64,000 nt of DNA from a virus, in IMG/VR virus record IMGVR_UViG_3300045988_096313, positions 32,001 through 96,000 of that record, one strand, 5' to 3'. Under the pieces are notes generated by a model. That model ran no database searches. It saw only the letters and a program-made list of their open reading frames with translations, and was not told where the DNA came from. Positions within the stretch are counted from its first letter, which is position 1. Each line of letters begins with the position of its first letter. Below, piece after piece: positions 2,323 to 61,494 of this stretch. A program made the position numbers and the translations under genes.

Positions 2323-3321
2323 ATGGAGAGAATGACAAGAAATGATGCCGCTGCTTATTTAGGTGTTGACCCTCAGACGATTACAAACTGGGTTAACAAG
2401 GGTTTGCTTGGAGGCTACAATGATAAGAGTAGTAAACGCTTTTGGGTGAATGCAGATGATGTTAAGAAGTATTCCGAGAAGTACAAGATGTTGTCTGTTT
2501 CAGAAGACTTGCTTGATAAAGAACAGAAAGAGTTGTTGGCAAGTGAGCGCAAGGTAAATGCGAAGATACAAATGTTAATGCATGATGCCTTGAACGTTTC
2601 TTCTTTCAGCTATGACAAAATAGGTGGTTCGCTTTGTACGTTATTGGAGTTAACGTCACAAGGTGGAATGCGAGAGAAGAAGATTATGCAAGCATTTTTT
2701 AATGGGGAAAGAATTTGTAATATAGCCGAAGAATTTGAACTTTCAAGGGAGAGGGTGCGCCAGATTGTCATTAAGGCTATCAGAAAGTTTAACTATGCGA
2801 TTGAAGAACTTGCTGACTTGAAGCAGGAGAACAATTCCTTGAAAGAAGAAATTAAGAATGTAAAAATGCAGTTGATTATGCAAGAGGGTGAAAAAGAAGA
2901 AGAACATTCTGAAGATGTTCCCCCTTCTGTGTTCTCCATCCGATTAGTTAATTGTAATTTACCAGTACGTGTCCTTAATGTGACAAAGGCAGCCAATATA
3001 GATACTATTGGAGATTTGGTACAATATTCCAAGTTCGAAATGGTAAAATTCAGAAACTTCGGAAAGAAAAGCCTTATGCAATTGGATGAATTCATTCACG
3101 AAATGGGCTTGGAATGGGGAATGGATAAGGCTAAGATATACGCAAGAGGTATTCAGCGAATGAAGGATGACACTTACATTGAAGAACTTTTTGGGATACA
3201 TCTTGCGGACATAACAAGCGATATTGAGAAAAAGTATAATCTTTCTCCGGCTGAGGCTATGAAGAGAGCTTATAGTGAAATGAAGAGATATGTAGGATTT
3301 AAAGAGAAGAGCAATGAATGA
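2323..3321 (+). CDS. putative transcription factor: N-terminal MerR/excisionase-like HTH, sigma-70 region-4-like segment and RNAP alpha-CTD-like C-terminus
   Basis: AAAYLGVDPQTITNWVNKGLL looks like an HTH. EFELSRERVRQIVIKAIRKF resembles sigma region 4.2. LPVRVLNVTKAANIDTIGDLVQYSKFEMVKFRNFGKKSLMQLDEFIHEMGL resembles the alpha-CTD helix-hairpin-helix pattern. Confidence 0.6.
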   Translation: MERMTRNDAAAYLGVDPQTITNWVNKGLLGGYNDKSSKRFWVNADDVKKYSEKYKMLSVSEDLLDKEQKELLASERKVNAKIQMLMHDALNVSSFSYDKIGGSLCTLLELTSQGGMREKKIMQAFFNGERICNIAEEFELSRERVRQIVIKAIRKFNYAIEELADLKQENNSLKEEIKNVKMQLIMQEGEKEEEHSEDVPPSVFSIRLVNCNLPVRVLNVTKAANIDTIGDLVQYSKFEMVKFRNFGKKSLMQLDEFIHEMGLEWGMDKAKIYARGIQRMKDDTYIEELFGIHLADITSDIEKKYNLSPAEAMKRAYSEMKRYVGFKEKSNE

Positions 3322-4114: not shown

Positions 4115-4756
4115 ATGGCAGATAGAGGATATAGAGGCAGACCTCAACGAGGCGAAAGAGCAGATAGGCAAATCAATGCCGGACATAGCCGTGGGTTGGA
4201 TGCGGCTTTGTCCGACACTGAAGCTAAAATTAGAAAGCTAAAGACAGAACGTATTTATGCTTATGACCAAAATGGAAAAGAGATAAGCCATTCCACAAGA
4301 GGTACTTCTACAAGTACGAAATTGCCAAGTGGCTATAATTACAAAGATGCAATATTGACGCATAACCACCCAGGAGAAGGGTTGGATAGCAATATTGCAG
4401 GTAGGATAGGAAGAAGCTTTAGTAGTGCAGATATTGCTACTACGGTCATAAATAACGCATCAGAGATAAGAGCTATCACAGGCTCTTATACATACTCTAT
4501 GAAAAGACCGAAGAATGGTTGGGGAATAAGTACGCAACGTCAAGCCGTGAATGTTGCAAGAAAAATAAAGGATAGGCGTATGAAATATTTTAATTCATAT
4601 GTCGCTAAACCAAGTTCCGATTACACTCACGGAAGAATAAGTAGAGAGCAGTTGTCAATTGCTTGGGACAGAGCTGATGTAGTTAGTACTAATAAAGCTC
4701 TTCGTGAAGTCGCAAAGGAATTAGGTTGGAATTATACTCGCAAGCGTACAAGTTAA
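4115..4756 (+). CDS. hypothetical protein with JAB/MPN (RadC-type) like motif
   Basis: THNHPGEG..(15 aa)..SFSSADI fits the HxH...S..D JAMM pattern. The N-terminus is Arg-rich. It has its own promoter. Confidence 0.4.
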   Translation: MADRGYRGRPQRGERADRQINAGHSRGLDAALSDTEAKIRKLKTERIYAYDQNGKEISHSTRGTSTSTKLPSGYNYKDAILTHNHPGEGLDSNIAGRIGRSFSSADIATTVINNASEIRAITGSYTYSMKRPKNGWGISTQRQAVNVARKIKDRRMKYFNSYVAKPSSDYTHGRISREQLSIAWDRADVVSTNKALREVAKELGWNYTRKRTS

Positions 4757-4782: not shown

Positions 4783-5226
4783 TTACCCCTCCTCATGTGG
4801 AAAGAACTTTCCCATCATCGCAAGCGCAGTAGTACATTTTTCAAATTGTTTTTGGAATCCGTACTTCTTGGCTCTCGATTGGTTGTGATGCAGGTCATTG
4901 ATTTTGACTTGGATTGCAACCATATCTTTTGAGTCGATGATAGATTGTACGTAGTCGAAATACGGAACACCTTCCTTGTGGGTTAGGACACATACACTAT
5001 CGGCAATGTCTTTTCTAACACCTAGTGATAACAGCTTGTCGTAGGTCATATCCGTATCTTCTATCGTATCATGGAGAAATCCAACACAAATCTCTTCGGT
5101 ACTATTACCCATTTCTCCTACATGGATAGGATGCAATATCACCGGAAGTCCAACCTTATCAATCTGTCCTTTGTGCGCCTTGCAAGCGATACCGAGGCAC
5201 AATTCAATCATTTCAGAATCTTTCAT
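4783..5226 (-). CDS. HD-domain small alarmone ((p)ppGpp/ppApp) hydrolase-like protein
   Basis: AHKGQIDKVGLPVILHPIHV...FLHDTIEDT...VKINDLHHN matches the RelA/SpoT HD hydrolase (Mesh1/SAH) signature. Confidence 0.75.
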   Translation of the reverse strand: MKDSEMIELCLGIACKAHKGQIDKVGLPVILHPIHVGEMGNSTEEICVGFLHDTIEDTDMTYDKLLSLGVRKDIADSVCVLTHKEGVPYFDYVQSIIDSKDMVAIQVKINDLHHNQSRAKKYGFQKQFEKCTTALAMMGKFFPHEEG

Positions 5227-5452
5227 ATTCTTCTTTCGTTATTAGCTCACCTAACTCAAGAGCATCTTGTGCATAGGTGTTTTCATTAAACTTAAACTCC
5301 TTTGGCTTACGTCCTTTGCCTTTAGGGTAACACATAAGTTCTTTATTTACATATTGATAACGGACAACGATGTCATCCTCCCAATAGTAAACATAAACCG
5401 ACTCTCCGTTTTTAAGGAGGTGGCTGATTTTGTTCTTATCTTTATTGTTCAT
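5213..5452 (-). CDS. hypothetical protein (79 aa)
   Basis: Start moved to ATG 5452, because the ORF-track start at 5479 lies inside the -7 box at 5477..5484. Overlaps the hydrolase gene by 14 nt. Confidence 0.5.
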   Translation of the reverse strand: MNNKDKNKISHLLKNGESVYVYYWEDDIVVRYQYVNKELMCYPKGKGRKPKEFKFNENTYAQDALELGELITKEEYERF

Positions 5453-5476
5453 AGTCTTTATCTCCTTATTACAATG

Positions 5477-5484
5477 CAAAGATA
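5477..5484 (-). promoter_or_regulatory. -7 promoter box (TATCTTTG on minus strand)
   Basis: The plus strand reads CAAAGATA. Lies 25 nt upstream of ATG 5452. Confidence 0.55.
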
Positions 5485-5546
5485 TAAAAAAGATATTAAA
5501 CTTGCAAATAAATTAATGTTTATTACTTGAAATTTAAATATATTAA

Positions 5547-6176
5547 TTATTGAAACATTGCATAGTAAGCTTGTTGCATAGATACCGACCTTTGCTTCTT
5601 GCCTCCGTTACTCTTGGCGGTTCTACTTTGCTCGTATAACGCATGTCCCCAACCGGATGGTTTCTTGGTCTCTTTATAGATTTCTCGCATGGTCTTTCCA
5701 CCCAACAGCTTATAGGCTATCGAGTAATTCTCCTTGGCGTAAATCATCTTGGCAGTGTTAACTTGTATCTCACCAATAAGTCCGGTCTTCTTGTTCCGAA
5801 TATTGATGATGTTTCCTGAATAGCCAGTATCCAGTTTCTGTTCCTTGAGTCTTACGAACTCAAAGCCTTTGTATTTGCCTTTTAGGTCTTTTATGATTTT
5901 CGGAATCGAGCCCTTATCTGCGATGATGGTTGTTCTGTACGAGTCCTTTATGTCTTTAATACCATTAGCCTCGCCCTTAGCTTTTCGTACTATAGAGTCA
6001 ACACTCTTGTAATTGATAGGAGTAACCCTTGCTCCATACTTCTTAGCTATACCTTCCGCTATAGCTTGTAGCTTATTACCAACCGACTCGGCTTTTCTCC
6101 GCATAGAGGTAGCTTGTGCTCGCAGCCTAGCATATGCCCCATTATTACCTACGTCTCCCATATCTTTTTTGTGCAA
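5547..6176 (-). CDS. RelA/SpoT-like nucleotidyltransferase (small alarmone synthetase / toxSAS-like)
   Basis: YKSVDSIVRKAK, IKDSYRTTII, TGYSGNIINI and GEIQVNTAKMIYAKE align with the RVKS..S, D..G.R.I, GY.S.H and EIQ.RT..M..WAE motifs. The start is ambiguous: TTG at 6176 or ATG at 6161. Confidence 0.65.
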   Translation of the reverse strand: MHKKDMGDVGNNGAYARLRAQATSMRRKAESVGNKLQAIAEGIAKKYGARVTPINYKSVDSIVRKAKGEANGIKDIKDSYRTTIIADKGSIPKIIKDLKGKYKGFEFVRLKEQKLDTGYSGNIINIRNKKTGLIGEIQVNTAKMIYAKENYSIAYKLLGGKTMREIYKETKKPSGWGHALYEQSRTAKSNGGKKQRSVSMQQAYYAMFQ

Positions 6177-6251
6177 AAGTAACCAAAATATAAGCCAATT
6201 AATATGTTACTGCGGTATGTTATTTCACTAAAAAGACAAAGTGAAAAGACA

Positions 6252-6259
6252 CAAAGATA
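6252..6259 (-). promoter_or_regulatory. -7 promoter box (TATCTTTG on minus strand)
   Basis: The plus strand reads CAAAGATA. Divergent from the plus-strand box at 6288. Confidence 0.5.
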
Positions 6260-11646: not shown

Positions 11647-11694
11647 AAACTTACAAGGATATTGAGCGATTATGAAAACTTACAAGGATATTGA
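11641..11694 (+). repeat. 29-bp-period tandem duplication of the fibre start region
   Basis: TTATGAAAACTTACAAGGATATTGA occurs at 11641..11665 and again at 11670..11694. The first copy gives a 9-codon mini-ORF overlapping the Dit stop. Confidence 0.9.
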
Positions 11695-14600
11695 TATAAA
11701 GTATTACGATAATGACGGAAACATACATGTAAGATGTTCTGTTCCCGTAACACAGGATGCATTGGTTCACTATGAATTAATGCAGTCCCACTATTGTAAG
11801 CTTTCCTTTAAGCTTACTAAGCCTACATATTTCTTACTTGGTGATTTTATAGATACACCATATGGACGATTTGAACTAATAGACTTAATTAAGGCCAAGG
11901 ATAATGATACTATTGGATATTCCTATGAGATACAATTTGATGCATATTATCGTAAGTTAAAGAATAAGATCTTGAAGTATCGCCCTAATACAGGTTCACA
12001 AGAAGCGACATTCTCTCTTACTTCAAAAATAAGCACCCATGTAGAGGTGATTATGAAAAGTTTAGCTTATTATGCGAAGTTAGACAAGTCTTATCTTTAC
12101 GACCCTAAATTTGAAGGCGAAGGTACGGACTATACTTATGTTATTGATGCGAGCGTAGACGCAAATGCTGCAAAGCTTATAACCTACTCAAACACAAGTA
12201 TGTTGGATGCTATTGCAAATATTGCTCAGACGTTTGAATGTGAATGGTGGTTTGAAGGCAATATTCTACATTTTGGTACTTGCGAGAATACAAATGCGAT
12301 TGTTGATTTCAGACTAAACGACAACATCGTTTCTATGTCAAGTTCGCAAAGCCAGTCCACTTATGCAAACAGGGTATATGCTTTTGGAGCTGCAAGGAAC
12401 TTGCCTAGTGGATATAAGAATGATGCAGATGCGGACATAACAAAGGATGGTGTTGTAGAAAAACGTCTCATGCTTCCTACTTCAGCAGAATGCTCTGACA
12501 AAAACAAGCAATTGTTAGCAGAGAATGGCTTTGAGCTGAAAAACGGATATATACAAGTCGGTGGACTCCATGAAGACCAGTATGTAGAGGGAGTAACAAC
12601 AAATGATGATATTTATCCAAGAAACCTTATCAAAACGTCTAAGGTGACATCATACGAAAAAGATGTAGAGGATGAAAGTACGCCCGAAGAGGGTGATTAC
12701 ATCAAACGGACTTTCTATCGTGTAAATTCGCTTACTATTGTCAATGATGATGGCGAAAAAACAGGTGATATGGCTTTCCGAAAGGCGTATATTCTTAGTG
12801 GTAAGAATTTACATATAGTGTTCCAAAGCGGTTCACTTAATGGTATGGACTTCGAGTGTGAGTTTAATCCAGATGGAGTTTCGGAAATACTTAGAGATAA
12901 TGATGGCAATCCGATTTTAAAGTATGGAAAGGAACAGATAAATCCAAAATCACAGGTCTTTGAGATTGTTGCTAATGAGGATTATGGTCGTTTTTTGCCG
13001 GACACGGCATTACACCCAAAAGATGGAGATACTTTTGTTCTCTATAATTGGGATTCTACCAAATTGGGCGATACTTTGGTTTCTGCTGCTTCGAATGAGT
13101 TGTTGACGGACGCTATTAAAAATTTGAAGAAGTCTATGATAGACCCTACGACATATACATGTACCGCTGAGGCTAATTATTCATTCAGTCAAGGTCGTGG
13201 CAACTTTCATGGGGTAGGAGACAGGGTTAACCTTTACAATAAGGGTTATGATGACAGCTATAGGTCTTCAAGAATTATCGGCTATGAACTTAATTTGGAT
13301 ATTCCTTATGATGGAGCAAAATATTATGTCGGAGAAAAACCGTCATATTCACGGCTCAATGCAATGGAGTCTAAAATTGAGGAACTTGTTTATAACGGAC
13401 AGAGTTATCTTAATGGCAATGGAGGCGGTGGAAAATCAATTTACATTATTAAAAGTTACGACAAGACTGCACCTACTGATTACAATGTGTATTCCGCAAA
13501 GGCTGTTGACGAGCAAAGATTAAACAAACTTAAGGATGACACCGCCAAGGGAACTATCACTTGGGAGAAGGTGCAGAAGCTTCTAAGTGGTTTGCTTATC
13601 GGTAACTCCAACAATGAGAACGGAGGCTCGTGGACTCCAGATGCAGAAGGTCGTTCGCACCTCATCACAGATTACTTGGAGGTAAGAATGAAGGCTATCT
13701 TCGAGGAGCTGGTCATTAATAAAACATCCACCATCGGTGGTAAGGAGATAATCTCTCCTGCTGGTGGCGTGGTGGCTCATAAGGTAGAAGAAGTTACTGT
13801 GACATACAATAATGTGTCACAGAAGGCTTATCGTTGCTATTTCTTAGCAGAGCAAGACGGCGACAAGATAGACAACGACTTTGTTGTTGAAGACCAAGTG
13901 CGCTCGGAGTCATTCAACTTGAATGCAGGAAAGTACCACAAGACAGGCAACCACTTCTTTTGGCGATTGGCAATCGGTCGTGACGAGGAACCTGTAGAGT
14001 TGGAAGGAAAGAAATACCATTACATCGACCTCTCGGAAACGGATTGCGCAACAGGTAGCGATGTTCCTATGAAGGGCGATGTACTCAGCCAATGCGGTAA
14101 CAGAAGCGACCCTATGAGACAGAGCTGCTTGGTATTCTCTTCGGTAGATACCTATTCGCCATCCATTAGCCTCTATCACGGCATCAACAGCTATTCCTTT
14201 GCCAATAGGGAGTATGTGGAATATGGTGTGAATAAGCAGACTAACAAGGCATTCTTCCACGTCTACGGAGATATGTACTTCGGAGACCGACCTACTAGTG
14301 CCAATAACTACGAGGGTGATTCCTACGTCAAGTATGATAGCGACAAGAAGAAAGTAACCATCAAGGGAGACTTGGATATTAAGTCCACCTATGATGGCAA
14401 AACCTTGGATAAGTATATCGCAGACAAGAGTTTGGATAAGAATGCCGTTGAGACCATTATCAAGAAATCGGAGACGATTATCGACCTTCAAAACCAGATA
14501 GACGGTGCAATCGAGACATGGTTCTACGATGGCGTTCCTACATTGAAAAATGAGCCAGCAGTCGGATGGGACACGGACATGATGAAAAACCATCTTGGGG

Positions 14601-17600
14601 ATTTGTATTATGACAATAAGACGGGCAAGGCATACCGCTTTGCCAAGGATGGCTCTACCTATAAGTGGATTATCATCACAGACACGGAACTGACCAAGGC
14701 ACTCGAAGATTCAAGCCAAGCACTCAAAGATGCAAAATCAAAGAGACGTATCTTCGGCTCTCAGCCAGTTCCACCATACGACGTGAACGATATGTGGGTC
14801 AATGCCACCTATCCTAGCGATGGAAGTACCTACAAGAATGAAATCTTGAAGTGTTCCACCTCCAAGGCAGAAGGTGAAGAGTTTGATATTGCCGATTGGA
14901 AATTGGCTAGCAAGTATACCGATGACACGAAGGCAGAGGAAGCAAAGAAAGCTGCTGAGAAGGCGCAAGCAGAGATTAAGGACACGCAAACTAATTTGAT
15001 TGCCCTCGGAACGACCGTATCTAACAATAAGAAGGCTTTCGATGCTTTTACCTCTGATGGCTACTTGGATAGTTCTGAGATTGCGGCTATTGCGCAGGAT
15101 AGCAAGCGTTTGGAGGACGATTATAATGCAGCCGTTGAGTCGTATAATAATGTTGTTGGCTCTAAGTTCTTGTTAGATAAGGATGGTAAAGAAACGACCT
15201 ATAAAACGGATTTGGTTTCAGCTAAGGCTACACTCGATAGCGCAAAAAATGAACTCATTACCTATCTTTCTGACATCGTAAGCAGATACAACGCTTCTGA
15301 TTCCAATGAAAAGGCTACCATCAAGGCGGCTGCGGCTCAGAAGTATACCAACTTCACCAATGCTTATAAGGCTTTCTACGACAAGCTGGGTGTGGCGAAC
15401 AACTATATCACGTCTAATCTGTTTGATGGTCTCAATACTAAGCTCATCACCAATATGGCTGGTCTTGAATACATCAAGGCTGCACTTGTTGATGGAGACA
15501 CAGTAGTCAAGGGTGGTCTTATCCTCTCTACATTGATAGCCTTACGTAACGATAAGGGAAATGTTACCGCAGGTATCAATGGAGCGGACACGAAGGAGAA
15601 TGGCATCGCCCTTTGGCTTGGTGGTAAGGCTATCGACAAGCAAGCCTCCACGACAACAGAGGAAGAGAAGAAAATTGCTGCCAAGTCCCTCCTACGCTTT
15701 GACGGAACTGGCTACTTCGCCAACGGCAACCTTTGGTGGGACGCAGATGGTACTTTGCACGCAGACCCGACATCTTTCATTATCAACAAGAATAATGTTG
15801 GTGTACAGCTTGCTCTCTTCGCACCTGTATGGAAGAGCGGAACGACCGACACAACAAAGCTGGCAAACGTATTATCTATCGACCCACAGAAGCCTTTCAC
15901 TCATCTTGACGTATCGGGTAACGTGACAACCGAAGGCAGCTTGAAAATTGGTGGAATCTATCTATCGTATGATAGTACCAACAATGCCCTTCGACTATCC
16001 AAGGATGCGGCAGGAAAGGAGGCTGCTAACTTCTATGCTCTTGGTGGTATTACCGCATACGGAAAAGGTGCAGGTACTTCTGGCGGTGGTGGCGGCTTGA
16101 ACGGCAGTGTGAAGAGTTATTCAAATGCCTTGAAACTTACATCAGAATCGCTGAATGAGATTGCCTCTGCCTACTCCATCAAGGCTCTTGATTCTCGTAT
16201 CTCCAGCCTAGAAGGTGGTAGTGCTACTGCTATTTCTGTCAGCGGTAGCGGTAATGCGGTTACGTCTGTCACCAAGAATGGTACTACTATCAGCGTAGTT
16301 AAAGGTGCAACGTTCCTCACCAGTCATCAGTCACTTGATGGTTACGTTAATGCAATATCTGTAAGTGGAAGTGGGAATGCTATCACGTCTGTATCTAAAA
16401 GCGGAAAGGGTATTACATTTACTAAAGGTGCTACATTTTTAACTTCTCACCAAAGTCTTGCTAACTATTATACCAAAAGTAGTGTAGATTCACTTCTTAG
16501 TGGTAAGTCGGCAACTAGTCATACACATAGTGTTAAGATTAACGGTGTTACTAAAACTATTGCAGCTACTGGTGGAACTGCTGTAGATTTAGGTACTTAT
16601 CTTACTTCTCATCAATCTTTAGCAAATTATGTTACTACTACAGATAGTAGACTTAGTGATAGTCGTTATCCTAAATTTGCTAATCGTACTTGGTATTTAG
16701 TAGGATACGATGCTTATATTGGCGACCATAATTTAAGTGGTTATTTTTGTGTTAAAAGTGCTAATGATAGTACTCGAGTTGGTATTTCATTATGGAATCG
16801 TGCTGAAAATGATTATGCTAATATATGGTTCGATAATACAAATATAAACCTTGATAAACAACTTGTTATGAATAACAAGCGTATTTGGATTCAAGGTGTC
16901 GGTACTGCTGGAGGTAATAATAATAGACTTACTCTTGTAGCAGGTATGCCTAGCGGATTAGCATATAATACTTCATGCCGTGGAACGATTCTTTATTCTA
17001 ACGGTATAGCATTTGCTGACCCATATAATGGTAAATCAAATAATGATAGTGGATGGATTAGACATTTAGAAACTTCTGGTAATAGTGGAACTTTAGAAAT
17101 AGCAGTAGGTGATGATGCTTCAAATGAAGAAATTCATTTCAGATGGTATGATACTACTCCAACTTCAGAACATATAAGATATGATATAACTGTTCCTAGA
17201 GCTACAGGTACTTTAGCTTTAACTAGTCAAATACCTACTTCTCTTAAATCTCCAAATTCATTATCTTGGAGTGGTTATAATACAGGTTCTTATGATGGTT
17301 CTAGTCCTAAAAGTTTTGTTATACCTAGTAATACTAATCAGTTAACTAATGGAGCTGGTTTTATAACTTCTAGTGCTAGCATTAGTGGTAATGCTGCTAC
17401 AGCAACAAATGCTGATAAACTTGATGGTATACACGCTAATGGTCTTCTCACTGCTATATCTAATTCCGATAAAGGTATTAGTATAACAGTTGGCGGAACT
17501 ACTAAAAGTGTTAGTAATATTAGTGTTAACTATGCTAGTAGTGCTGGAAATGCTGATACTGTTGATGGTTATCATGAAAGTTCATTTCTTAGATATAGAG

Positions 17601-19477
17601 GTGAGTATGGAGATGCATCTGTAACTAAAGATGGAGTTGGAGTTTATGGTTGGGCTCATACTAATGAGGGACATAATAATTTTCATGAAAGCTATGGTGA
17701 TATAATTAATATACAAGGCTATTCTACTTGGAGAACTAGATTTGATATAGGAACTAGTGGAAGAATTAGAATAATGCATGGTATAAATACTACTACTGCA
17801 ACTCAGGTTGGTTATCTTGCTTATTTACATGATAATGTGGCTTCTGCAACTAAACTTCAAACTGCTAGAACTATTTGGGGGCAAAGCTTTGATGGTACTG
17901 GTAATGTTAATGGAACTATTTACATAAACAATAATAATTCCTCTAACGGTGCTATACGATTAAACAATGATATAAATTCTAATGCTCGTATATCTGCTAT
18001 AGATAACCAAGTAATATTTAATACTGGTGCTGCTATTCGTTTTGGTGAAACTGCTTGGGATTGGAATCAGTGGGCTGGACTTAAATATAATCATTCCTAT
18101 AAAATTATTTATCTTGGTATAGCTGATGGTTCTGCATTTAATGCTAATAACGCACAAAGTGAAGGTACGCTTAGACTTGCTGGTATTAAAACTGTAACTC
18201 CTGATAGTGGAGCTAGAATTGGAAATACTGGTGGAGATTTATATCTAGGTAATAACAATAATAGTGCTTGGGTGAAAGTTCAAGACATGTGTAGTCAACA
18301 AAATAGTAATAATTGGCGTATATATCAAGCTGGTGGTGCTGTATTTAATACTCTTACAATTAATGGTGGCAGTACTTTTAATGGTGCAGTTAAAGTTAAC
18401 AATATGCTTACTGCTAAAGCTATAATGTTTACTACTACTGATGCAAATGCGTTTGGTACTGATATAAATAATTGGGATGGTAGTATTGGGGCTAATGTTA
18501 CTAATATGTTTAATGGTATTCCTCAGGACAATATACAAGTAGAATATTCAATGGATAATGGTGCTAGTTGGAATACATATCCTGGTAATCCAGAAAGTAG
18601 ATTTAATCTTGTAAATGATAATACTAGGGTATTTAATTATTATTTAGGGTGTAATAATATGCTTGGTGATACTGAGGCTGATAAACTTGCTCAAATAAAG
18701 AAAAATCAACTTAGGGTTACTGTTAAAATTCCTGCTGAAATATATCAAGAACTTAGTTGGATAAGTGTTGACGTAAATAACGGAGTTGATATAAAATGTC
18801 AAGTATACTTTGGAAGTAGTACTGGTGGTTATAAAGAATATGTTTCTAAAATAATGTTAGGATGGGCACACAAATGTGATATTTGTGTTGGTCCTTTAAA
18901 TGTAAATGTTGGTAATGATACATATCGTTATGTAAGATTAGTATTTAGTCATCCTAGTAATAATACTGCTTTACGTAATGGTATTGTTGCTAAAATTAGA
19001 GCTTTAGCTTTAACTAAATATATTTATAATAATGGCAGATATACATTTAGTACTACTGGTCATATATATGATTATGATGCTTATATGAATACTTATTTCC
19101 CTAATAGCATTCTTGCTGCTGGTGGAGTTACAGCTTATAAATCTTCTGATGTTCGTCTTAAAACTAACATTACTAAACTTAATTGTTTAAATGTTATTAA
19201 AAGTATTGGAGGTACTTATGAATTTGATTATCTTCGTGACCATAAACATAGTATTGGTTTTATTGCTCAACATGTAAATAATCCATTACTTAAAGATATA
19301 GTTGCTAAGGATAAAGATGGTTATCTAAAGATTAACTATTGGAGTCCTAAACTTATTAGTCTTGCTTTTGGTGCTTTAACTGAAATAGATGATGAAGTTG
19401 ATAGACTTAAAGCTAGAGTTAGAGAATTAGAAACTGAAGTTGAATATTTAAAAAATAAAGATTATGCCTTACAATAG
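11672..19477 (+). CDS. giant tail fibre / tail-tip receptor-binding protein (2601 aa) with C-terminal intramolecular chaperone
   Basis: Uninterrupted 7.8-kb ORF with fibre-type repeats (NADKLDGIHA, NADTVDGYHES, SHTHS, LTSHQSL). C-terminal SSDVRLKTNI...IGFIAQHV...coiled coil matches Peptidase_S74. Confidence 0.88.
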   Translation: MKTYKDIDIKYYDNDGNIHVRCSVPVTQDALVHYELMQSHYCKLSFKLTKPTYFLLGDFIDTPYGRFELIDLIKAKDNDTIGYSYEIQFDAYYRKLKNKILKYRPNTGSQEATFSLTSKISTHVEVIMKSLAYYAKLDKSYLYDPKFEGEGTDYTYVIDASVDANAAKLITYSNTSMLDAIANIAQTFECEWWFEGNILHFGTCENTNAIVDFRLNDNIVSMSSSQSQSTYANRVYAFGAARNLPSGYKNDADADITKDGVVEKRLMLPTSAECSDKNKQLLAENGFELKNGYIQVGGLHEDQYVEGVTTNDDIYPRNLIKTSKVTSYEKDVEDESTPEEGDYIKRTFYRVNSLTIVNDDGEKTGDMAFRKAYILSGKNLHIVFQSGSLNGMDFECEFNPDGVSEILRDNDGNPILKYGKEQINPKSQVFEIVANEDYGRFLPDTALHPKDGDTFVLYNWDSTKLGDTLVSAASNELLTDAIKNLKKSMIDPTTYTCTAEANYSFSQGRGNFHGVGDRVNLYNKGYDDSYRSSRIIGYELNLDIPYDGAKYYVGEKPSYSRLNAMESKIEELVYNGQSYLNGNGGGGKSIYIIKSYDKTAPTDYNVYSAKAVDEQRLNKLKDDTAKGTITWEKVQKLLSGLLIGNSNNENGGSWTPDAEGRSHLITDYLEVRMKAIFEELVINKTSTIGGKEIISPAGGVVAHKVEEVTVTYNNVSQKAYRCYFLAEQDGDKIDNDFVVEDQVRSESFNLNAGKYHKTGNHFFWRLAIGRDEEPVELEGKKYHYIDLSETDCATGSDVPMKGDVLSQCGNRSDPMRQSCLVFSSVDTYSPSISLYHGINSYSFANREYVEYGVNKQTNKAFFHVYGDMYFGDRPTSANNYEGDSYVKYDSDKKKVTIKGDLDIKSTYDGKTLDKYIADKSLDKNAVETIIKKSETIIDLQNQIDGAIETWFYDGVPTLKNEPAVGWDTDMMKNHLGDLYYDNKTGKAYRFAKDGSTYKWIIITDTELTKALEDSSQALKDAKSKRRIFGSQPVPPYDVNDMWVNATYPSDGSTYKNEILKCSTSKAEGEEFDIADWKLASKYTDDTKAEEAKKAAEKAQAEIKDTQTNLIALGTTVSNNKKAFDAFTSDGYLDSSEIAAIAQDSKRLEDDYNAAVESYNNVVGSKFLLDKDGKETTYKTDLVSAKATLDSAKNELITYLSDIVSRYNASDSNEKATIKAAAAQKYTNFTNAYKAFYDKLGVANNYITSNLFDGLNTKLITNMAGLEYIKAALVDGDTVVKGGLILSTLIALRNDKGNVTAGINGADTKENGIALWLGGKAIDKQASTTTEEEKKIAAKSLLRFDGTGYFANGNLWWDADGTLHADPTSFIINKNNVGVQLALFAPVWKSGTTDTTKLANVLSIDPQKPFTHLDVSGNVTTEGSLKIGGIYLSYDSTNNALRLSKDAAGKEAANFYALGGITAYGKGAGTSGGGGGLNGSVKSYSNALKLTSESLNEIASAYSIKALDSRISSLEGGSATAISVSGSGNAVTSVTKNGTTISVVKGATFLTSHQSLDGYVNAISVSGSGNAITSVSKSGKGITFTKGATFLTSHQSLANYYTKSSVDSLLSGKSATSHTHSVKINGVTKTIAATGGTAVDLGTYLTSHQSLANYVTTTDSRLSDSRYPKFANRTWYLVGYDAYIGDHNLSGYFCVKSANDSTRVGISLWNRAENDYANIWFDNTNINLDKQLVMNNKRIWIQGVGTAGGNNNRLTLVAGMPSGLAYNTSCRGTILYSNGIAFADPYNGKSNNDSGWIRHLETSGNSGTLEIAVGDDASNEEIHFRWYDTTPTSEHIRYDITVPRATGTLALTSQIPTSLKSPNSLSWSGYNTGSYDGSSPKSFVIPSNTNQLTNGAGFITSSASISGNAATATNADKLDGIHANGLLTAISNSDKGISITVGGTTKSVSNISVNYASSAGNADTVDGYHESSFLRYRGEYGDASVTKDGVGVYGWAHTNEGHNNFHESYGDIINIQGYSTWRTRFDIGTSGRIRIMHGINTTTATQVGYLAYLHDNVASATKLQTARTIWGQSFDGTGNVNGTIYINNNNSSNGAIRLNNDINSNARISAIDNQVIFNTGAAIRFGETAWDWNQWAGLKYNHSYKIIYLGIADGSAFNANNAQSEGTLRLAGIKTVTPDSGARIGNTGGDLYLGNNNNSAWVKVQDMCSQQNSNNWRIYQAGGAVFNTLTINGGSTFNGAVKVNNMLTAKAIMFTTTDANAFGTDINNWDGSIGANVTNMFNGIPQDNIQVEYSMDNGASWNTYPGNPESRFNLVNDNTRVFNYYLGCNNMLGDTEADKLAQIKKNQLRVTVKIPAEIYQELSWISVDVNNGVDIKCQVYFGSSTGGYKEYVSKIMLGWAHKCDICVGPLNVNVGNDTYRYVRLVFSHPSNNTALRNGIVAKIRALALTKYIYNNGRYTFSTTGHIYDYDAYMNTYFPNSILAAGGVTAYKSSDVRLKTNITKLNCLNVIKSIGGTYEFDYLRDHKHSIGFIAQHVNNPLLKDIVAKDKDGYLKINYWSPKLISLAFGALTEIDDEVDRLKARVRELETEVEYLKNKDYALQ
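16229..16474 (+). repeat. two tandem 123-nt (41-aa) repeats inside the fibre
   Basis: AISVSGSGNAVTSVTKNGTTISVVKGATFLTSHQSLDGYVN is followed by AISVSGSGNAITSVSKSGKGITFTKGATFLTSHQSLANYYT. A partial third copy (TYLTSHQSLANYV) lies near 16600. Confidence 0.9.
19142..19474 (+). other. Peptidase_S74 / endosialidase-type intramolecular chaperone auto-cleavage domain
   Basis: SSDVRLKTNITKL..YEFDY..HSIGFIAQHV..LKINY, then the coiled coil VDRLKARVRELETEVEYLK. Confidence 0.8.
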
Positions 19478-22987: not shown

Positions 22988-23497
22988 TCATATTTTCAAG
23001 AAGTCTTCTACATCAATGTACTCAATTCCGAAATTCTCTGCGCATTGTTTGTCGGAGTCTGAGAAGTCACCTTCTTTTCCACTGGCATCACCTATCATAA
23101 TCAGCTCACTCTTTTTCCAAGAAGAATACGACTCAAGCATTCCTGTATTTGGCTTTCTCATGCAAATCTCTGCATTTGATGGGCAATACATGGAGTTGAC
23201 AAAGATGTTGCGTCCGGTATGATGGCGAAGATATTTTTGCATAAAGCTTTCTATAGCCTTAATCTTTCCGATAAATTCCTGTTCGTCAACGAATTGAGGT
23301 ATGCCACCTTGGTTTGAAACTATTTCTACATAGTATAGGGTAGGGAACGCTTCTACTATCTTATCCAAAACCTCTTTACGTATTTTGAAATCTGTTACAT
23401 CTGTAGGAAAGGTGTTTCCTGAAATAGTCTTGATTATAGTATCGTCTAAATCAATGAATAGTACTTTTTTCTTGATTAAATATCCTTTTTCTATCAT
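22988..23497 (-). CDS. HAD-family polynucleotide 3'-phosphatase-like protein (PNK phosphatase domain only)
   Basis: FIDLDDTII (DxDxT), VSNQGGI and MIGDASGKEGDFSDSDKQCAENFG match the PNKP/T4 Pnk phosphatase motifs. There is no kinase P-loop. Start moved to ATG 23497, downstream of the promoter and box. Confidence 0.65.
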   Translation of the reverse strand: MIEKGYLIKKKVLFIDLDDTIIKTISGNTFPTDVTDFKIRKEVLDKIVEAFPTLYYVEIVSNQGGIPQFVDEQEFIGKIKAIESFMQKYLRHHTGRNIFVNSMYCPSNAEICMRKPNTGMLESYSSWKKSELIMIGDASGKEGDFSDSDKQCAENFGIEYIDVEDFLKI

Positions 23498-23553
23498 ATT
23501 TTGCTTATCCTTTATATTAATGTCATTACCTAAAAAATGAAGTTTATAAAACA

Positions 23554-23576
23554 CAGTTGTTTTGGTGTGTCTCACC
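23554..23576 (-). promoter_or_regulatory. conserved hairpin-box copy 2
   Basis: The minus strand reads GGTGAGACACACC-AAAACAACTG, 12 nt downstream of the -7 box. Confidence 0.6.
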
Positions 23577-23588
23577 TCTTTAACAATG

Positions 23589-23596
23589 CAAAGATA
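23589..23596 (-). promoter_or_regulatory. -7 promoter box (TATCTTTG on minus strand)
   Basis: The plus strand reads CAAAGATA. Confidence 0.55.
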
Positions 23597-23644
23597 CGAC
23601 AAAATGGATATTCTTGCAAATAAATTAATGCAAATTTTGAATCG

Positions 23645-34981: not shown

Positions 34982-35332
34982 ATGAAAGAGTTAAGTTTTG
35001 ATAAGCTATACGTAAATTTTAGCAATTTATATTGTGAGTATCGTAGTAGAAAGCAATTCTTGAAGTGGTTGAAATCCTCAAAGAATCTTTCTGAAGAGTT
35101 GTTTGAAGTAACGCCAAGTGAAGGTGGTTCGTTTGATGTTGTGTTGTCTTTTGAAGAGATAAAGGATGTATTCCCGATTATGGAGAATTCATTGCCTAAG
35201 TACGAAAACGATATAAAGCAAGTTCTTTTGGCTATAAAGGAAATGGGACAGCTTGAAGTTGCAAAGATATGGCATGAGGATGATTGGGGTGATGGCTTTG
35301 TAGAGGATTTTTGTAAAACACATGATATTTAA
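34982..35332 (+). CDS. hypothetical protein (116 aa)
   Basis: Intact ORF whose stop overlaps the MTase start. Confidence 0.5.
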   Translation: MKELSFDKLYVNFSNLYCEYRSRKQFLKWLKSSKNLSEELFEVTPSEGGSFDVVLSFEEIKDVFPIMENSLPKYENDIKQVLLAIKEMGQLEVAKIWHEDDWGDGFVEDFCKTHDI

Positions 35333-36381
35333 TGAGGATACGGACGTTTGAACTTTGTGCCGGATATGACTCTCAACTGATGGCTTTAGAGCGGTTGAAG
35401 AAGAAATATTCTGATTTCGATTACGAGTGCATCGGCTGGTCGGAGATAGAGCCAAGTGCAATAGCCTTGCATAATGCTTGTTTTCCTAGTCTATCCTGCA
35501 AGAATTTCGGTGATATGACAAAGATAGATTGGAGCAAGGTTGAAGACTTTGACTTGCTGACATATTCAACACCTTGCCAGTCCATTTCGCAAGCCGGAAA
35601 GCAGAAAGGAATAGAGGAGGGGAGTAACACCCGTTCCTCTATCCTTTGGCTTACAAGAAACGCCATTATTACCACGAGACCGAAATACCTCTTGATGGAG
35701 AATGTTGAGGCTTTGGTTCAAACAAAGTTCATCGGGTTCTTCAATAAGTGGCGTAAGGAGTTGGAATCCTATGGATATGTCAACTATGCTAAGGTGATAA
35801 ATGCAGCCGATTGTGGTGTTCCTCAGAACAGAAAGCGTGTCTTTATGCTCTCTATACGAAATGATGGAGAAAAGACCGATTATCACTTTCCGAGAAAGAT
35901 AAAGCTGGAGAAACACTTAGTTGATGTCTTGGAGGAAAATGTGGACGAGAAGTACTTTTTGAGCGATGCCCTGCTATGTAAAGAGAAGTTTGTGTCAAAT
36001 GAAAGGAAAGAGCCTATGAGTGCAGCTATAAGAACTCGTTCTGAGGGGAAGTGGATAAAAGGCGAAATGCATAGTCCAAAGGTCGAGCTTGGAAAGAATA
36101 TAGCCAATACCATTACATCTGCGAGCAAGGACTCCTTGGTTGTGCTTGGAGAGACAAGGTTGCGCATTAGGCGTTTGACTCCGAGAGAACTCTTCCGCTT
36201 AATGAACGTTGACGAAGAATACATAGACAAGATGCTTGAAAGTGGAGTGTCGAAGTCAAGTCTTCAAAAGGCAGCTGGAAATTCGATTGTCGTAGCTTGC
36301 ATGGAAAGGATATTAGAGGAACTTTGGTTTAATAGCAAAGAGTTCGACGTTTCCGATGACGGACAATTATATATATTTTAG
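35332..36381 (+). CDS. DNA (cytosine-5)-methyltransferase
   Basis: FELCAGYDS (motif I-like), TYSTPCQSISQAGK (PCQ, motif IV), LLMENV (motif VI), QNRKRVF (motif VIII), GNSIVV (motif X). Confidence 0.85.
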   Translation: MRIRTFELCAGYDSQLMALERLKKKYSDFDYECIGWSEIEPSAIALHNACFPSLSCKNFGDMTKIDWSKVEDFDLLTYSTPCQSISQAGKQKGIEEGSNTRSSILWLTRNAIITTRPKYLLMENVEALVQTKFIGFFNKWRKELESYGYVNYAKVINAADCGVPQNRKRVFMLSIRNDGEKTDYHFPRKIKLEKHLVDVLEENVDEKYFLSDALLCKEKFVSNERKEPMSAAIRTRSEGKWIKGEMHSPKVELGKNIANTITSASKDSLVVLGETRLRIRRLTPRELFRLMNVDEEYIDKMLESGVSKSSLQKAAGNSIVVACMERILEELWFNSKEFDVSDDGQLYIF

Positions 36382-36637: not shown

Positions 36638-37774
36638 ATGATTTCATACAAGTATAAGCTATATCGGACAAAGAAGACGAAGCATTTGGATAAGATGCTC
36701 CGAGAGGCTTGCTATGTTTGGAATCATGCGCTTGCCTTGCAGATGAGGTACTATAAGCTGTACCACAAGTATATTCCAAAATTTACGATGTTTAAGCATT
36801 TCTCTAAGCGATATAAGCCAATATTGCTTAACGGTCATACCATTAGAGAAATTTTAGAGCGTTTGGATATAGCTTACCAACGTTTCTTCAAACACGATGC
36901 GAAGCGTCCACCGAAATTCAAAAAGGCATCTGAGTTTTGCTCATTTGTTTTTACTGATTGTGGTTATTCTCTTAGTGGAAATGAGTTGGCGATAAACAAG
37001 ATTAAGAAGTCCTTCAAGTTCTTTCTGAGCCGTTCCTACGATGGCAAGGTCAAGAGGGTGTCAGTTAAGCGCAACAAGTTGGGCGAGTACTTCATTATCC
37101 TTTGCTTAGATAAAGAAGCCAGACCTTACGGAAAGTCACACGATGGTGCATCCGTTGGCATCGACTTTGGATTGAAGAAGTACCTGACTTTGAGCGATGG
37201 GCGTGAGATTGATAATCCTCAGTTCCTTAAAGCTGACTTGCAGGAGCTTAGGCGCAGGTCTCGCAACTTCTCGAAGTGCAAGAAGGGCAGCAACAACCGC
37301 AAACGAAAGAAGCTGGAGTTGGAGCGATTGTATCGAAACATCGTGAACAAGCGTTCCGATTTTCAGTGGAAGTTGGCGCATGAGTTGTGCAAGCGTTATG
37401 ACTTGATTTGCTTGGAGGATTTGAACTTGGAGGGAATGATAAAGCGTTGGGGACGCAAGATGTCTGACTTGGCTCATGGCGATTTCGTTGTGAAGTTGGA
37501 GCACGTAGCGAAGAAGTATGGCGTTCAGGTTCATAAGATAGACCGCTTCTTCCCTTCGAGCCGTCTCTGTACCTGTGGTTACAAGAATGATAAGCTGTCA
37601 TTGAGTGATAGGATTTGGACTTGTCCTAGTTGTGGTGCAGTTCATCCTAGAGACCTCTTCGCAGCTGAGAATATACTTCGGCAGGGCATTGCCGAATTGG
37701 GGAGTGGTAGTAAGTCACCCAAGCACTCGCAAGGGCGCAGCCACGTTAGCCACCCAACAATTCCTTGCAAATAA
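36638..37774 (+). CDS. tnpB: TnpB (OrfB) RNA-guided RuvC nuclease
   Basis: Typical N-terminus MISYKYKLYRTKKT. RuvC triad candidates VGIDFGLKK (D), ICLEDLNL (E), HPRDLFAAENI (D). Zinc ribbon CTCG...CPSCG. Confidence 0.85.
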   Translation: MISYKYKLYRTKKTKHLDKMLREACYVWNHALALQMRYYKLYHKYIPKFTMFKHFSKRYKPILLNGHTIREILERLDIAYQRFFKHDAKRPPKFKKASEFCSFVFTDCGYSLSGNELAINKIKKSFKFFLSRSYDGKVKRVSVKRNKLGEYFIILCLDKEARPYGKSHDGASVGIDFGLKKYLTLSDGREIDNPQFLKADLQELRRRSRNFSKCKKGSNNRKRKKLELERLYRNIVNKRSDFQWKLAHELCKRYDLICLEDLNLEGMIKRWGRKMSDLAHGDFVVKLEHVAKKYGVQVHKIDRFFPSSRLCTCGYKNDKLSLSDRIWTCPSCGAVHPRDLFAAENILRQGIAELGSGSKSPKHSQGRSHVSHPTIPCK

Positions 37775-41614: not shown

Positions 41615-41871
41615 TGAAAATCGAACCAAGTGAGTTCTTGTCGATAGGTAATGAATTTCAGAAAATCTTCGGTGTTAGCTTTGGAAAGTTCATTGATATG
41701 CGGTTTCTTTTAGCGAGAAAAGAGTTGGTCTTTAACTTACTGAAGTTCACGGATTGGCTTGAAGAACGTTATCCAGATGAGTGTTCCATTGATGAAGTGA
41801 GTTACAATGCGGTTGTCGAGCGAAAGTTTGGCAAGCGAGGTGTTAAAATGATTAAGAAGTTGATAGGATGA
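41614..41871 (+). CDS. hypothetical protein (85 aa)
   Basis: Start overlaps the upstream stop, and the stop overlaps the Dam start. Confidence 0.5.
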   Translation: MKIEPSEFLSIGNEFQKIFGVSFGKFIDMRFLLARKELVFNLLKFTDWLEERYPDECSIDEVSYNAVVERKFGKRGVKMIKKLIG

Positions 41872-55678: not shown

Positions 55679-55701
55679 CGTGAGACACACGTTAAAAACT
55701 G
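55679..55701 (+). promoter_or_regulatory. conserved hairpin-box copy 8 (CGTG-AGACA-CACG)
   Basis: CGTGAGACACACG-TTAAAAACTG with no adjacent -7 box. Ends 14 nt before ATG 55716. Confidence 0.6.
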
Positions 55702-55715
55702 AAAAGAAGAAACAA

Positions 55716-61471: not shown

Positions 61472-61494
61472 CAGTTGTCCTAGTGTGTCTCACT
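61472..61494 (-). promoter_or_regulatory. conserved hairpin-box copy 10 (AGTG-AGACA-CACT)
   Basis: The minus strand reads AGTGAGACACACT-AGGACAACTG. It overlaps the 3' end of the Rha gene, just before the terminator. Confidence 0.5.

Follow-up and report, generated by a model that had tools for sequence, protein, structure and literature searches.

What does a phage gain from an alarmone synthetase of its own? The question is raised by three neighbouring genes on the minus strand of a phage that is common in the human gut, with Segatella (Prevotella) copri as its probable host. The DNA analysed, a stretch of 64,000 nucleotides here called the window, covers its genome only in part, the contigs being as long as ~100 kb or more. 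An earlier note on this DNA had described a RelA/SpoT-like synthetase, an HD-domain alarmone hydrolase and, between them, a small ORF of unknown function; the three ORFs are present on the minus strand where it had placed them, and all of the peptide motifs that it quoted (YKSVDSIVRK, DSYRTTII, GYSGNIINI and GEIQVNT for the synthetase, HKGQIDKVGLPVILHP...FLHDTIEDT for the hydrolase) are found in the translations. We consider it likely that the locus belongs to a known kind of toxin–immunity system, the tripartite (p)ppApp module Apk–Tis1/IapK–Aph, in a form that lacks MuF. Its biochemical parts and the three-gene order are already known; what is unusual here is that the toxin comes without the defining feature of Apk2, a MuF head-protein carrier. 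For phage-encoded (p)ppApp toxins, the two studies that characterised such systems (PMC10083569, PMC12226406) call the biological role unresolved.

The synthetase gene (5547..6161, minus strand, stop included) encodes a free-standing protein of 204 aa, whose top sequence match is Tas1 (PDB 6OX6_A; E 2.5e-18, residues 27-206). The same structure, 6ox6_A, is the top PDB fold match of its AF2 model (pLDDT 87; E 4e-12, TM 0.79/0.83), and among the matches listed the fold relatives retrieved by Foldseek, with 49 PDB matches at E <= 1e-3, are all RSH/SAS/toxSAS enzymes. These matches to solved structures are strong in both sequence and fold, so the identification is not due to chance. In Pfam the only match is a weak one to RelA_SpoT, and its score of 17.8 bits, short of the cut-off of 27, marks the synthetase as divergent; NCBIfam gives no match. 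The protein belongs to the RSH superfamily, as a divergent RelA/SpoT-type enzyme of the kind first proposed. This superfamily is marked by a synthetase fold of nucleotidyltransferase type and by the syn1-4 motifs, with their Mg-binding Asp and catalytic Glu. Besides the fold, D73, R76, E131 and Q133 show no variation among 34 homologues, nor do K52, K60, T78, G113, G116 and N135, and all of these residues fall within the segments assigned to the syn1-4 motifs.

The motifs also place the enzyme more precisely. Apk-type synthetases are characterised by R-x-T in syn2, by a syn3 without S-x-H and by a syn4 without I-R (PMC12226406), and the protein described here carries DSYRTT, GYSGNIIN and EIQVNT, which, with its sequence and fold matches, make it a member of the Apk/Tas1-like family. 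Tas1 itself has GYSGVN and EIQVNS, so that GYSG and EIQVN are common to the two proteins, with the syn3 register one residue off between them. The replacement of the usual H and R by N, noticed earlier as a peculiarity, is real; it is however not an oddity, since it is typical of Tas1/Apk (p)ppApp synthetases. By analogy with these enzymes, the protein probably makes (p)ppApp out of ATP. As for its start, TTG 6176 had been proposed previously, but ATG 6161 is most likely, because TTG 6176 sits inside a conserved –7 motif, TActTTTG (6174..6181, minus strand), which is located 12 nt upstream of this ATG.

The 79-aa protein encoded downstream (5213..5452, minus strand) can no longer be regarded as being of unknown function, since profile and fold both identify it as a Tis1/IapK-type immunity protein. 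The Pfam model Tis1_ImmP (PF24154) matches it below threshold (E 1.7e-4, 22.1 bits, cut-off 27), and matches 7 of the 11 members of its family; NCBIfam leaves it unmatched. The family profile searched against PDB has a single significant match, 6ox6_B, which is Tis1 (E 1e-4), and the same chain is the top fold match of the AF2 model (pLDDT 94), with a probability of 1.00, TM 0.62/0.65 and an rmsd of 1.8 A, the runner-up reaching TM 0.42. The assignment to the Tis1/IapK group thus follows from fold and family, with a sub-threshold sequence score, and the position of the gene directly downstream of an Apk toxin gene is the one expected of this group. The succession of toxin gene and Tis1-like gene is also seen in the homologous loci L001, L004/5, L006, L010 and L011.

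The third gene (4783..5226, minus strand) encodes a compact single HD domain of 147 aa, an alarmone hydrolase, as previously proposed, and closest to Aph1. Its best PDB match is 7smg_A, the '(p)ppApp hydrolase' Aph1 of 149 aa (E 5.3e-20 with the single sequence and 6e-28 with the profile), followed by a Rel hydrolase domain (5e-17). Furthermore, phrog_990, a family of metal-dependent phosphohydrolases, matches it at E 1.7e-31, while Pfam HD_4 remains below its curated cut-off and NCBIfam yields only weak SpoT/RelA N-terminal matches. The metal site H...HD...D of Aph1-type enzymes of ~150 aa is formed by H32, H52, D53 and D111, invariant in 18 homologues. The specificity of Aph1 has been ascribed to D24, R96, D116, R119, K133 and Y134 (PMC10083569), and the hydrolase described here keeps part of this signature: D24 corresponds to the invariant D23, the only signature residue that is clearly kept, whereas the positions of R96 and D116 are occupied by Ser. 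In the family R118 is invariant and K121-Y122 are conserved, but HMMER aligns Aph1 only up to about residue 118, short of R119, K133 and Y134. Judging from these residues, the enzyme might be non-specific for (p)ppApp.

Within the 64-kb window the module lies antisense, between regulatory genes and the terminase genes, and 5' of the toxin gene a divergent intergenic region is followed by a plus-strand gene for a ParB-like protein. A gap of 94 nt separates the synthetase stop from the 79-aa gene, which in turn overlaps the hydrolase gene (start at 5226), as the earlier note had observed; the overlap, of 14 nt, is kept in related phages, and the two immunity genes are therefore probably translationally coupled. 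The 94-nt gap holds a putative internal promoter, as had been proposed for this gene pair: a Bacteroidota-type promoter motif at 5477..5508 on the minus strand, made up of the –33 element TTTG, a 20-nt spacer and the –7 element TAtcTTTG. Across the window this pattern was counted 15 times, where 3.8 +/- 2.0 matches would be expected, and 0 of 100 shuffles reach that number. Both elements of the 5477..5508 promoter are conserved in L001, L004 and L005, in which the spacer has diverged, and they are kept even where the phage synthetase is only ~62% identical. The –7 motif ahead of the toxin gene behaves in a similar way, being found as TAatTTTG in L001 and as TAaaTTTG in L004/L005 amid a diverged intergenic region; TActTTTG at 6174..6181 is, by its motif, a candidate promoter element of the synthetase gene. 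By contrast, the TAtcTTTG located further upstream, at 6252..6259, where the piece described in the earlier note ended, is not conserved in L001. Split promoters for synthetase and hydrolase, as predicted then, are thus upheld at the level of motifs, with one conserved motif for the toxin gene and another for the immunity pair. A scan of the minus strand gave no terminator-like site behind either the toxin gene or the hydrolase gene; since none follows the toxin gene, both promoters probably serve the immunity genes, and only one of them the toxin.

The combination of three genes had been considered to stand out, but this architecture is already published, and the order toxin–Tis1/IapK–hydrolase matches a known phage cluster. 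Apk2–BcTis1–Aph1 has been characterised in a temperate phage of Bacteroides caccae (Ahmad et al., PNAS 2023, PMC10083569), and apk2–iapK–aph1 in prophages of Streptococcus pneumoniae, Mannheimia and Pasteurella (PMC12226406); the three protein families and their order are common to these clusters and to the module described here, and the B. caccae cluster is likewise phage-borne in a Bacteroidota host. The differences are in the toxin and in the setting. Apk2 is fused to an N-terminal MuF (SPP1 gp7-like minor head) domain, while the toxin analysed here stands by itself as a protein of 204 aa that shares ~45-48% identity with MuF-fused homologues; the module is not beside the portal, unlike the Apk2 clusters, but antisense and upstream of the terminase genes, and its immunity pair has its own promoter motif. 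A second system to be compared is the Tas1 (Apk1)–Tis1 pair of the Pseudomonas aeruginosa T6SS (PDB 6OX6), the best solved structure for both the synthetase and the 79-aa protein. It is a chromosomal effector locus, in which the Apk1 type is defined by a PAAR/DUF4280 domain and T6SS context; here the toxin has no N-terminal extension and no PAAR domain, the context is that of a phage, and a hydrolase gene is added.

A further parallel in composition is the FaRel toxSAS of Cellulomonas marina, which comprises ATfaRel SAH, FaRel and AT2faRel (Jimmy et al., 2020; Kurata et al., 2024, PMC11782079) and whose toxin produces (pp)pApp (PMC11782079). Like FaRel-type systems, in which a free-standing toxic SAS goes with an SAH and/or a Tis1-like antitoxin, the phage module has a free-standing toxin and two putative neutralisers, a small alarmone hydrolase and a Tis1-like domain. 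The likeness is one of composition; the best matches of the synthetase are Tas1 and MuF-fused Apk2-type proteins. Moreover, the FaRel toxin gene is flanked by its two antitoxin genes, in contrast with the order toxin–Tis1–hydrolase found here, AT2faRel has an extra pZFD domain which the 79-aa protein lacks, and the FaRel locus belongs to an actinobacterial chromosome rather than to a Bacteroidota phage. Another phage toxSAS with a cognate neutraliser is PhRel–ATphRel (gp29/gp30) of mycobacteriophage Phrann, the mycobacteriophage example alluded to in the earlier note; it has been proposed to protect lysogens from superinfection and, unlike the present module, is a two-gene system without Tis1-like or HD partner.

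The stand-alone state of the toxin is not peculiar to this phage. To look for a MuF carrier, an HMM was made from the N-termini of seven MuF proteins; it recovers the MuF-fused controls L088-L090 at E <= 1e-135 but finds none in the window, the best E against all 673 ORFs being 0.73. The closest relatives of the toxin that are not stand-alone are 45-48% identical and include MuF-fused minor-head proteins which share phrog_16625, a family named for Bxa. In a rough, distance-based neighbour-joining tree without support values, the toxin falls within a clade of 37 homologues, all of them stand-alone. Furthermore, a stand-alone toxin with a Tis1-like gene is found upstream of terminase genes in four other phage lineages (L008, L010, L011 and L004/5); in L008 the Tis1 match is weak (E 0.007) and the hydrolase is absent. 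Of 74 near-identical loci from IMG/VR and MAGs, ~70 have an intact module and ~71 a full-length toxin, and the cluster with the intact toxin (P0001) has 1149 member sequences against 1-5 for each frameshift cluster. Measured against phages 63-79% identical, at which synonymous sites are saturated, pN/pS is ~0.2 for all three genes. The module is under purifying selection. Frameshifts have nevertheless arisen independently in the toxin gene of several close relatives, and the chromosomal homologue L002 has only a MuF fragment.

The toxin/antidote logic that had been proposed for synthetase and hydrolase is borne out by their homologues. By analogy with these, the 204-aa enzyme would use ATP as pyrophosphate donor and pyrophosphorylate the 3'-OH of ATP, ADP or AMP, giving (p)ppApp, and this synthesis would drain the ATP/ADP pool and arrest growth. 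The 79-aa protein is predicted to bind the toxin and to occlude its acceptor-nucleotide site, and the 147-aa HD enzyme would probably destroy the product, hydrolysing (p)ppApp to ATP/ADP. Our preferred reading of the role, a tentative one modelled on the FaRel toxin–antitoxin system, is that the module works inside the phage-carrying cell, where the toxin would be silent as long as immunity is made and would be freed when the supply fails, for example if the phage is lost or a competing phage causes a shut-off, resulting in exclusion of competitors or addiction. Such a role favours a lysogenic state, and against it stands the fact that a search of the 64-kb window for integrase or lysogeny genes gave neither, turning up just two Ant-like proteins and HTH regulators.

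The same observation would suit a role in host takeover or metabolic reprogramming, as would the size of the contigs, which at ~60-134 kb suggest a large and possibly virulent phage. In this case, which we regard as rather unlikely, a controlled pulse of (p)ppApp during the lytic cycle would halt purine synthesis in the host, along with processes that consume ATP, and the Tis1-like protein and the hydrolase would be rheostats and not antidotes. The neighbourhood otherwise consists of lytic-cycle genes, with the terminase adjoining, the promoter motif of the toxin makes a separate timing possible, and the Apk2 of B. caccae is bacteriostatic, not bactericidal (PMC10083569). On the other hand, antisense genes with their own promoters, outside the early and late operons, correspond to the pattern of a moron, two dedicated neutralisers are the mark of a toxin–immunity system, and the independent frameshift alleles suggest that the toxin is dispensable for replication.

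It is improbable that the free toxin is packaged non-covalently, for example bound to the portal or another protein of the head, and delivered by injection with the DNA. Nearly all of its 204 aa correspond to the Tas1 toxin fold, with no spare targeting segment, the carrier domain is absent from it and from the window, and its gene is antisense to the structural operon. These features outweigh the kinship with MuF minor-head proteins and the vicinity to packaging genes in several phages, which would agree with the capsid route published as a hypothesis for MuF toxins (PMC5576092; PMC10083569).

That the synthetase would instead resemble FaRel2, PhRel or CapRel, as a pyrophosphokinase of tRNA-CCA or a (p)ppGpp synthetase, is very improbable. 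It does belong to the RSH/toxSAS superfamily, and CapRel and small alarmone synthetases are among its weaker fold matches (TM 0.47-0.64), but Tas1 is far ahead in both sequence and fold, and R-x-T in syn2 and EIQVN in syn4 are as in Tas1. PhRel, which binds tRNA, is classed among the tRNA-phosphorylating toxSAS and not among the (p)ppApp producers (PMC11782079). In this respect the partners are telling: Tis1-type inhibitors pair with (pp)pApp producers, while tRNA-modifying toxSAS use pZFD antitoxins (PMC11782079), and here the inhibitor resembles Tis1 rather than pZFD, and a (p)ppApp-specific hydrolase is the nearest relative of the second partner. Pyrophosphorylation of tRNA, which the earlier note had mentioned as an alternative, is therefore unlikely for a toxin whose nearest characterised relatives make (p)ppApp only. 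Finally, the least probable reading, a decaying MuF-toxin remnant deprived of its 5' part and of its function, could appeal to the frameshift alleles and to the MuF fragment of L002, and is rejected on grounds of conservation, given the invariant catalytic motifs, the dominance of the intact allele, the full-length loci, the low pN/pS at saturated synonymous sites, the conserved promoter motif and start codon of the toxin gene and the wholly stand-alone clade.

A toxin with double immunity is thus kept by purifying selection without a MuF carrier, in a very common phage of the human gut, and the module recurs near the terminase genes of several unrelated phages; both facts suggest that delivery by the capsid is not the sole, and perhaps not the main, route by which it brings benefit. 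It is possible, if still doubtful, that the stand-alone Apk clade is a separate functional class, in which (p)ppApp serves within the cell that is infected or carries the phage, whether to shut off the host, to exclude rival phages or for self-addiction, with no injection from the capsid. If so, the benefit of the toxin would be independent of MuF-mediated delivery, and an abundant Segatella phage would offer a natural system for asking what phage (p)ppApp toxins are for. The separate promoter of the immunity pair and the natural frameshift alleles of the toxin make it a tractable case in which exclusion, addiction and host takeover can be addressed.

The GC content of the module (0.36-0.40) is that of its surroundings, so that composition gives no hint of a recent acquisition. 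For annotation it matters that current models of Pfam, NCBIfam and PADLOC either overlook the three proteins or score them below threshold, and in PADLOC-DB v2 none of the three matches a defence model at E <= 0.01. A scan of the window for tRNA genes found none, and a scan for sigma-70 promoters was of no help, yielding 4 sites where 6.6 were expected, which fits the Bacteroidota host already claimed for this phage and upheld here.

Three minus-strand ORFs lie where the earlier note had placed them, and all the peptide motifs that it cited are recovered in their translations: a synthetase gene, the presumed toxin (5547..6176; 209 aa from a TTG, 204 aa from the ATG at 6161), a 79-aa ORF (5213..5452), and an HD hydrolase gene (4783..5226; 147 aa), the start of which overlaps the end of the 79-aa ORF by 14 nt. 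The GC content of this module equals that of its surroundings. The bordering genes are on the plus strand on both sides, with a regulator fusing HTH, sigma-70 region 4 and RNA polymerase alpha-CTD domains and small ORFs on one flank; the other flank encodes a ParB-like protein, both terminase subunits (small and large), a portal of SPP1 type, a tail protein and a fibre-like protein of 2601 aa. The module thus forms an antisense island immediately upstream of the packaging functions. Between the ATG at 6161 and the plus-strand ParB-like gene lie 156 nt of divergent intergenic sequence. Convergent with the hydrolase gene is a 213-aa ORF (4115..4756, plus strand) with no match in Pfam, PADLOC or NCBIfam; in the related phage loci L004 and L005 other small ORFs take its place, and it therefore falls outside the conserved module.

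In Pfam the synthetase gives a sub-threshold RelA_SpoT match (17.8 bits, cut-off 27). A phmmer search against PDB sequences matches its residues 27-206 to the toxin domain of Tas1 (6ox6_A, residues 254-431; E 2.5e-18), the (p)ppApp synthetase of the Pseudomonas aeruginosa type VI secretion system, and Tas1 is also the top structural match of its AlphaFold2 model (pLDDT 87; E 4e-12, TM 0.79/0.83, rmsd 2.4 A), followed by weaker matches to exported and small alarmone synthetases and CapRel (TM 0.47-0.64). Residues of the segments that we assigned to the four syn motifs, among them K52, K60, D73, R76, T78, G113, G116, E131, Q133 and N135, are invariant in 34 homologues. The replacement of the usual H and R by N, previously noted as a divergence, is indeed present but is not odd, since Tas1 likewise has GYSGVN and EIQVNS, in agreement with the Apk-type deviations discussed by Paulet et al. 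(PMC12226406).

The 79-aa gene, earlier described as of unknown function, is identifiable as Tis1-like. The protein matches Pfam Tis1_ImmP (E 1.7e-4; 22.1 bits, cut-off 27), as do 7 of 11 members of its family; the family profile retrieves from PDB Tis1 alone (6ox6_B, E 1e-4), over nearly the full length, and Tis1 is the sole convincing fold match of the model (pLDDT 94; probability 1.00, TM 0.62/0.65, rmsd 1.8 A, 26% identity; runner-up TM 0.42). The closest PDB entry to the hydrolase is the “(p)ppApp hydrolase” 7smg_A (E 5.3e-20 with the single sequence, 6e-28 with the family profile), which is Aph1 of Bacteroides caccae, followed by Rel and SpoT hydrolase domains (5e-17 and weaker). Invariant residues include the metal ligands H32, H52, D53 and D111 and also D23, corresponding to Aph1 D24, one of two residues shown to determine adenosine specificity (PMC10083569). 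Ser occupies the positions of Aph1 R96 and D116, and the alignment stops near Aph1 residue 118, short of R119, K133 and Y134, although R118 is invariant and K121-Y122 conserved within the family. Specificity for (p)ppApp is likely, though not secured. The window allele (…FFPHEEG*) is 10 residues shorter than the dominant 157-aa allele (…FFPHKEGQYYPSFEYIP; P0084, L001:10935-11408) and about 95% identical to most copies, compared with 99-100% for the toxin and Tis1-like genes; in more distant relatives the hydrolase stops even earlier, so that the C-terminal tail seems dispensable.

Both the three-gene architecture and its mechanism have been described before, which the earlier interpretation, right in part, had overlooked. 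The same three families occur in the same order in a temperate phage of B. caccae (Ahmad et al., PNAS 2023; PMC10083569), in which Apk2 is a (p)ppApp synthetase toxin fused to MuF, BcTis1 confers immunity by binding and Aph1 by enzyme activity, each alone protecting partially and both together fully. Prophages of Streptococcus, Mannheimia and Pasteurella carry apk2–iapK–aph1, as reported by Bartoli et al. and Paulet et al. (PMC12226406). Kurata et al. showed that Tis1-type domains inhibit those toxSAS that make (pp)pApp, acting at the acceptor site, and that FaRel, a free-standing toxin of a toxin-antitoxin system, is neutralised by a small alarmone hydrolase and by a Tis1-like antitoxin (PMC11782079). 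By analogy with these characterised homologues, the synthetase would catalyse ATP-dependent 3'-pyrophosphorylation of adenine nucleotides, the Tis1-like binder would inhibit it and the HD enzyme would hydrolyse its product. What is new here is that the variant lacks MuF, is separately promoted and occurs widely among abundant gut phages; in full-text literature searches, whose incomplete coverage makes this no proof of novelty, no description of stand-alone phage Apk toxins turned up.

Unlike Apk2, the window toxin has no carrier domain. A MuF HMM, derived from seven N-termini of the closest fused homologues, matches none of the 673 window ORFs (best E 0.73), whereas it matches MuF-fused loci at E <= 1e-135; nowhere in the window was MuF or a major capsid protein recognised. 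When 1.84 billion representatives were searched exhaustively, 515 toxin relatives came back at E <= 1e-3. Among 204 pooled homologues aligning well to the toxin, 77 are stand-alone, some of which may be contig-end fragments, 63 carry N-terminal fusions longer than 250 aa, 45 shorter extensions and 19 other architectures; nine of ten long relatives scanned with PHROGs have MuF or minor-head N-termini. In a rough neighbour-joining tree the window toxin falls within a clade of 37 sequences, all stand-alone, a state borne out by genomic look-ups in several phages. The triad keeps its position in L001 (89% identity where the frame is unshifted) and in L004/L005 (62%); L010 and L011 (about 45-53%), otherwise different phages, have all three genes upstream of the terminase, and in L008 the toxin is accompanied by a weakly matching Tis1-like gene (E 0.007) but by no hydrolase. 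Separately, a bacterial chromosomal contig (L002:7103-9165) encodes a 300-aa Apk homologue with a MuF fragment only (HMM E 3.6e-22). Its neighbours, amid housekeeping genes, are a protein with an ADP-ribosyl exotoxin domain and a convergent ORF of 90 aa; the locus looks like a toxin cassette stranded from a degraded prophage.

The Bacteroidota promoter pattern TTTG-N17-23-TAnnTTTG has 15 matches in the window against 3.8 +/- 2.0 expected. One lies on the minus strand in the toxin–immunity gap (5477..5508), and both its elements are kept in L004/L005, the remaining spacer having diverged. A second minus-strand -7 motif, TActTTTG (6174..6181), 12 nt before the ATG at 6161, is conserved in all four phages compared; because the TTG chosen by the ORF finder falls inside it, this ATG is the likely toxin start. 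A terminator scan found no minus-strand terminator-like site after the toxin gene. We infer that both motif-predicted promoters serve the immunity genes and one of them the toxin, so that immunity would stay in excess.

The intact toxin cluster comprises 1149 member sequences and the hydrolase cluster 1719, and IMG/VR holds at least 73 contigs (22-222 kb, most 60-134 kb) with a 98-100% identical toxin. Of 74 close loci, all have a full-length Tis1-like gene, about 71 a full-length toxin and about 69 a full-length hydrolase; against L004 and L013, another related locus, pN is 0.14-0.23 and pS 0.69-0.89 for all three genes, with synonymous sites saturated. The promoter type and an identical copy in one Segatella copri MAG contig both point to a host in Segatella/Prevotella. 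An unannotated 23-kb human faecal record, “Bacteriophage sp.”, matches 70% of the first 20 kb at 91.5% identity. In close relatives of the toxin gene, six or more independent frameshifts occur, each at its own position (P0005, P0007, P0008/P0009, P0010, P0023, P0025, P0026), such as a 1-nt deletion in L001:10001-10618 (P0008/P0009), AAGCTGTTGG to AAGC-GTTGG, and the toxin C-terminus is likewise frameshifted in the more distant L011 (7001-7624). The frameshifted alleles of the close relatives are rare (1-5 members each versus 1149 intact); the frameshifts may be natural inactivating mutations or assembly errors.

As to its role, we tentatively favour an intracellular toxin–immunity function of toxin-antitoxin type, leading to exclusion or addiction, given a toxin without delivery domain, a composition mirroring the FaRel system and a moron-like unit that runs antisense and has a promoter of its own for immunity. 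Host takeover, favoured by the lack of any integrase found within the 64-kb window, is possible but rather doubtful, and non-covalent delivery of the carrier-less toxin in the virion is improbable. That the synthetase acts on tRNA or makes ppGpp is unlikely, since Tas1 is its top sequence and fold match, the middle gene has the Tis1 fold and Tis1-type domains go with (pp)pApp producers (PMC11782079). Its being a remnant is unlikely in view of the invariant syn-motif residues, the mostly full-length loci and a pN well under pS.

Other genes in the window belong to a phage with contigs of about 100 kb or more. The 332-aa regulator (2323..3321, plus strand) has an HTH_17/excisionase-like domain at its N-terminus and also contains sigma-70 region 4 and the C-terminal domain of RNA polymerase alpha (Pfam E 6e-14); it keeps this architecture in L001 and L004 and is a candidate for an unusual transcription hijacker. 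The giant 2601-aa ORF (11672..19477, plus strand), after the portal and a Dit-like tail protein, ends in a Peptidase_S74 intramolecular chaperone domain and is thus fibre- or tailspike-like. A 378-aa ORF (36638..37774, plus strand) of the PHROG 'transposase' family phrog_506 (E 1.5e-87), which we take to resemble TnpB/IS605, suggests a mobile element within the phage genome. Two Ant/anti-repressor-like proteins (55680..56471, plus; 61480..62331, minus) and several HTH regulators are encoded too, as are an HNH endonuclease (56596..57306) and DNA methyltransferases, of which there are at least two (35332..36381, 41868..42593). Finally, a polynucleotide kinase 3'-phosphatase domain protein (22988..23602, minus strand; Pfam PNK3P, E 2e-21) may serve in RNA/tRNA repair or counter-defence.
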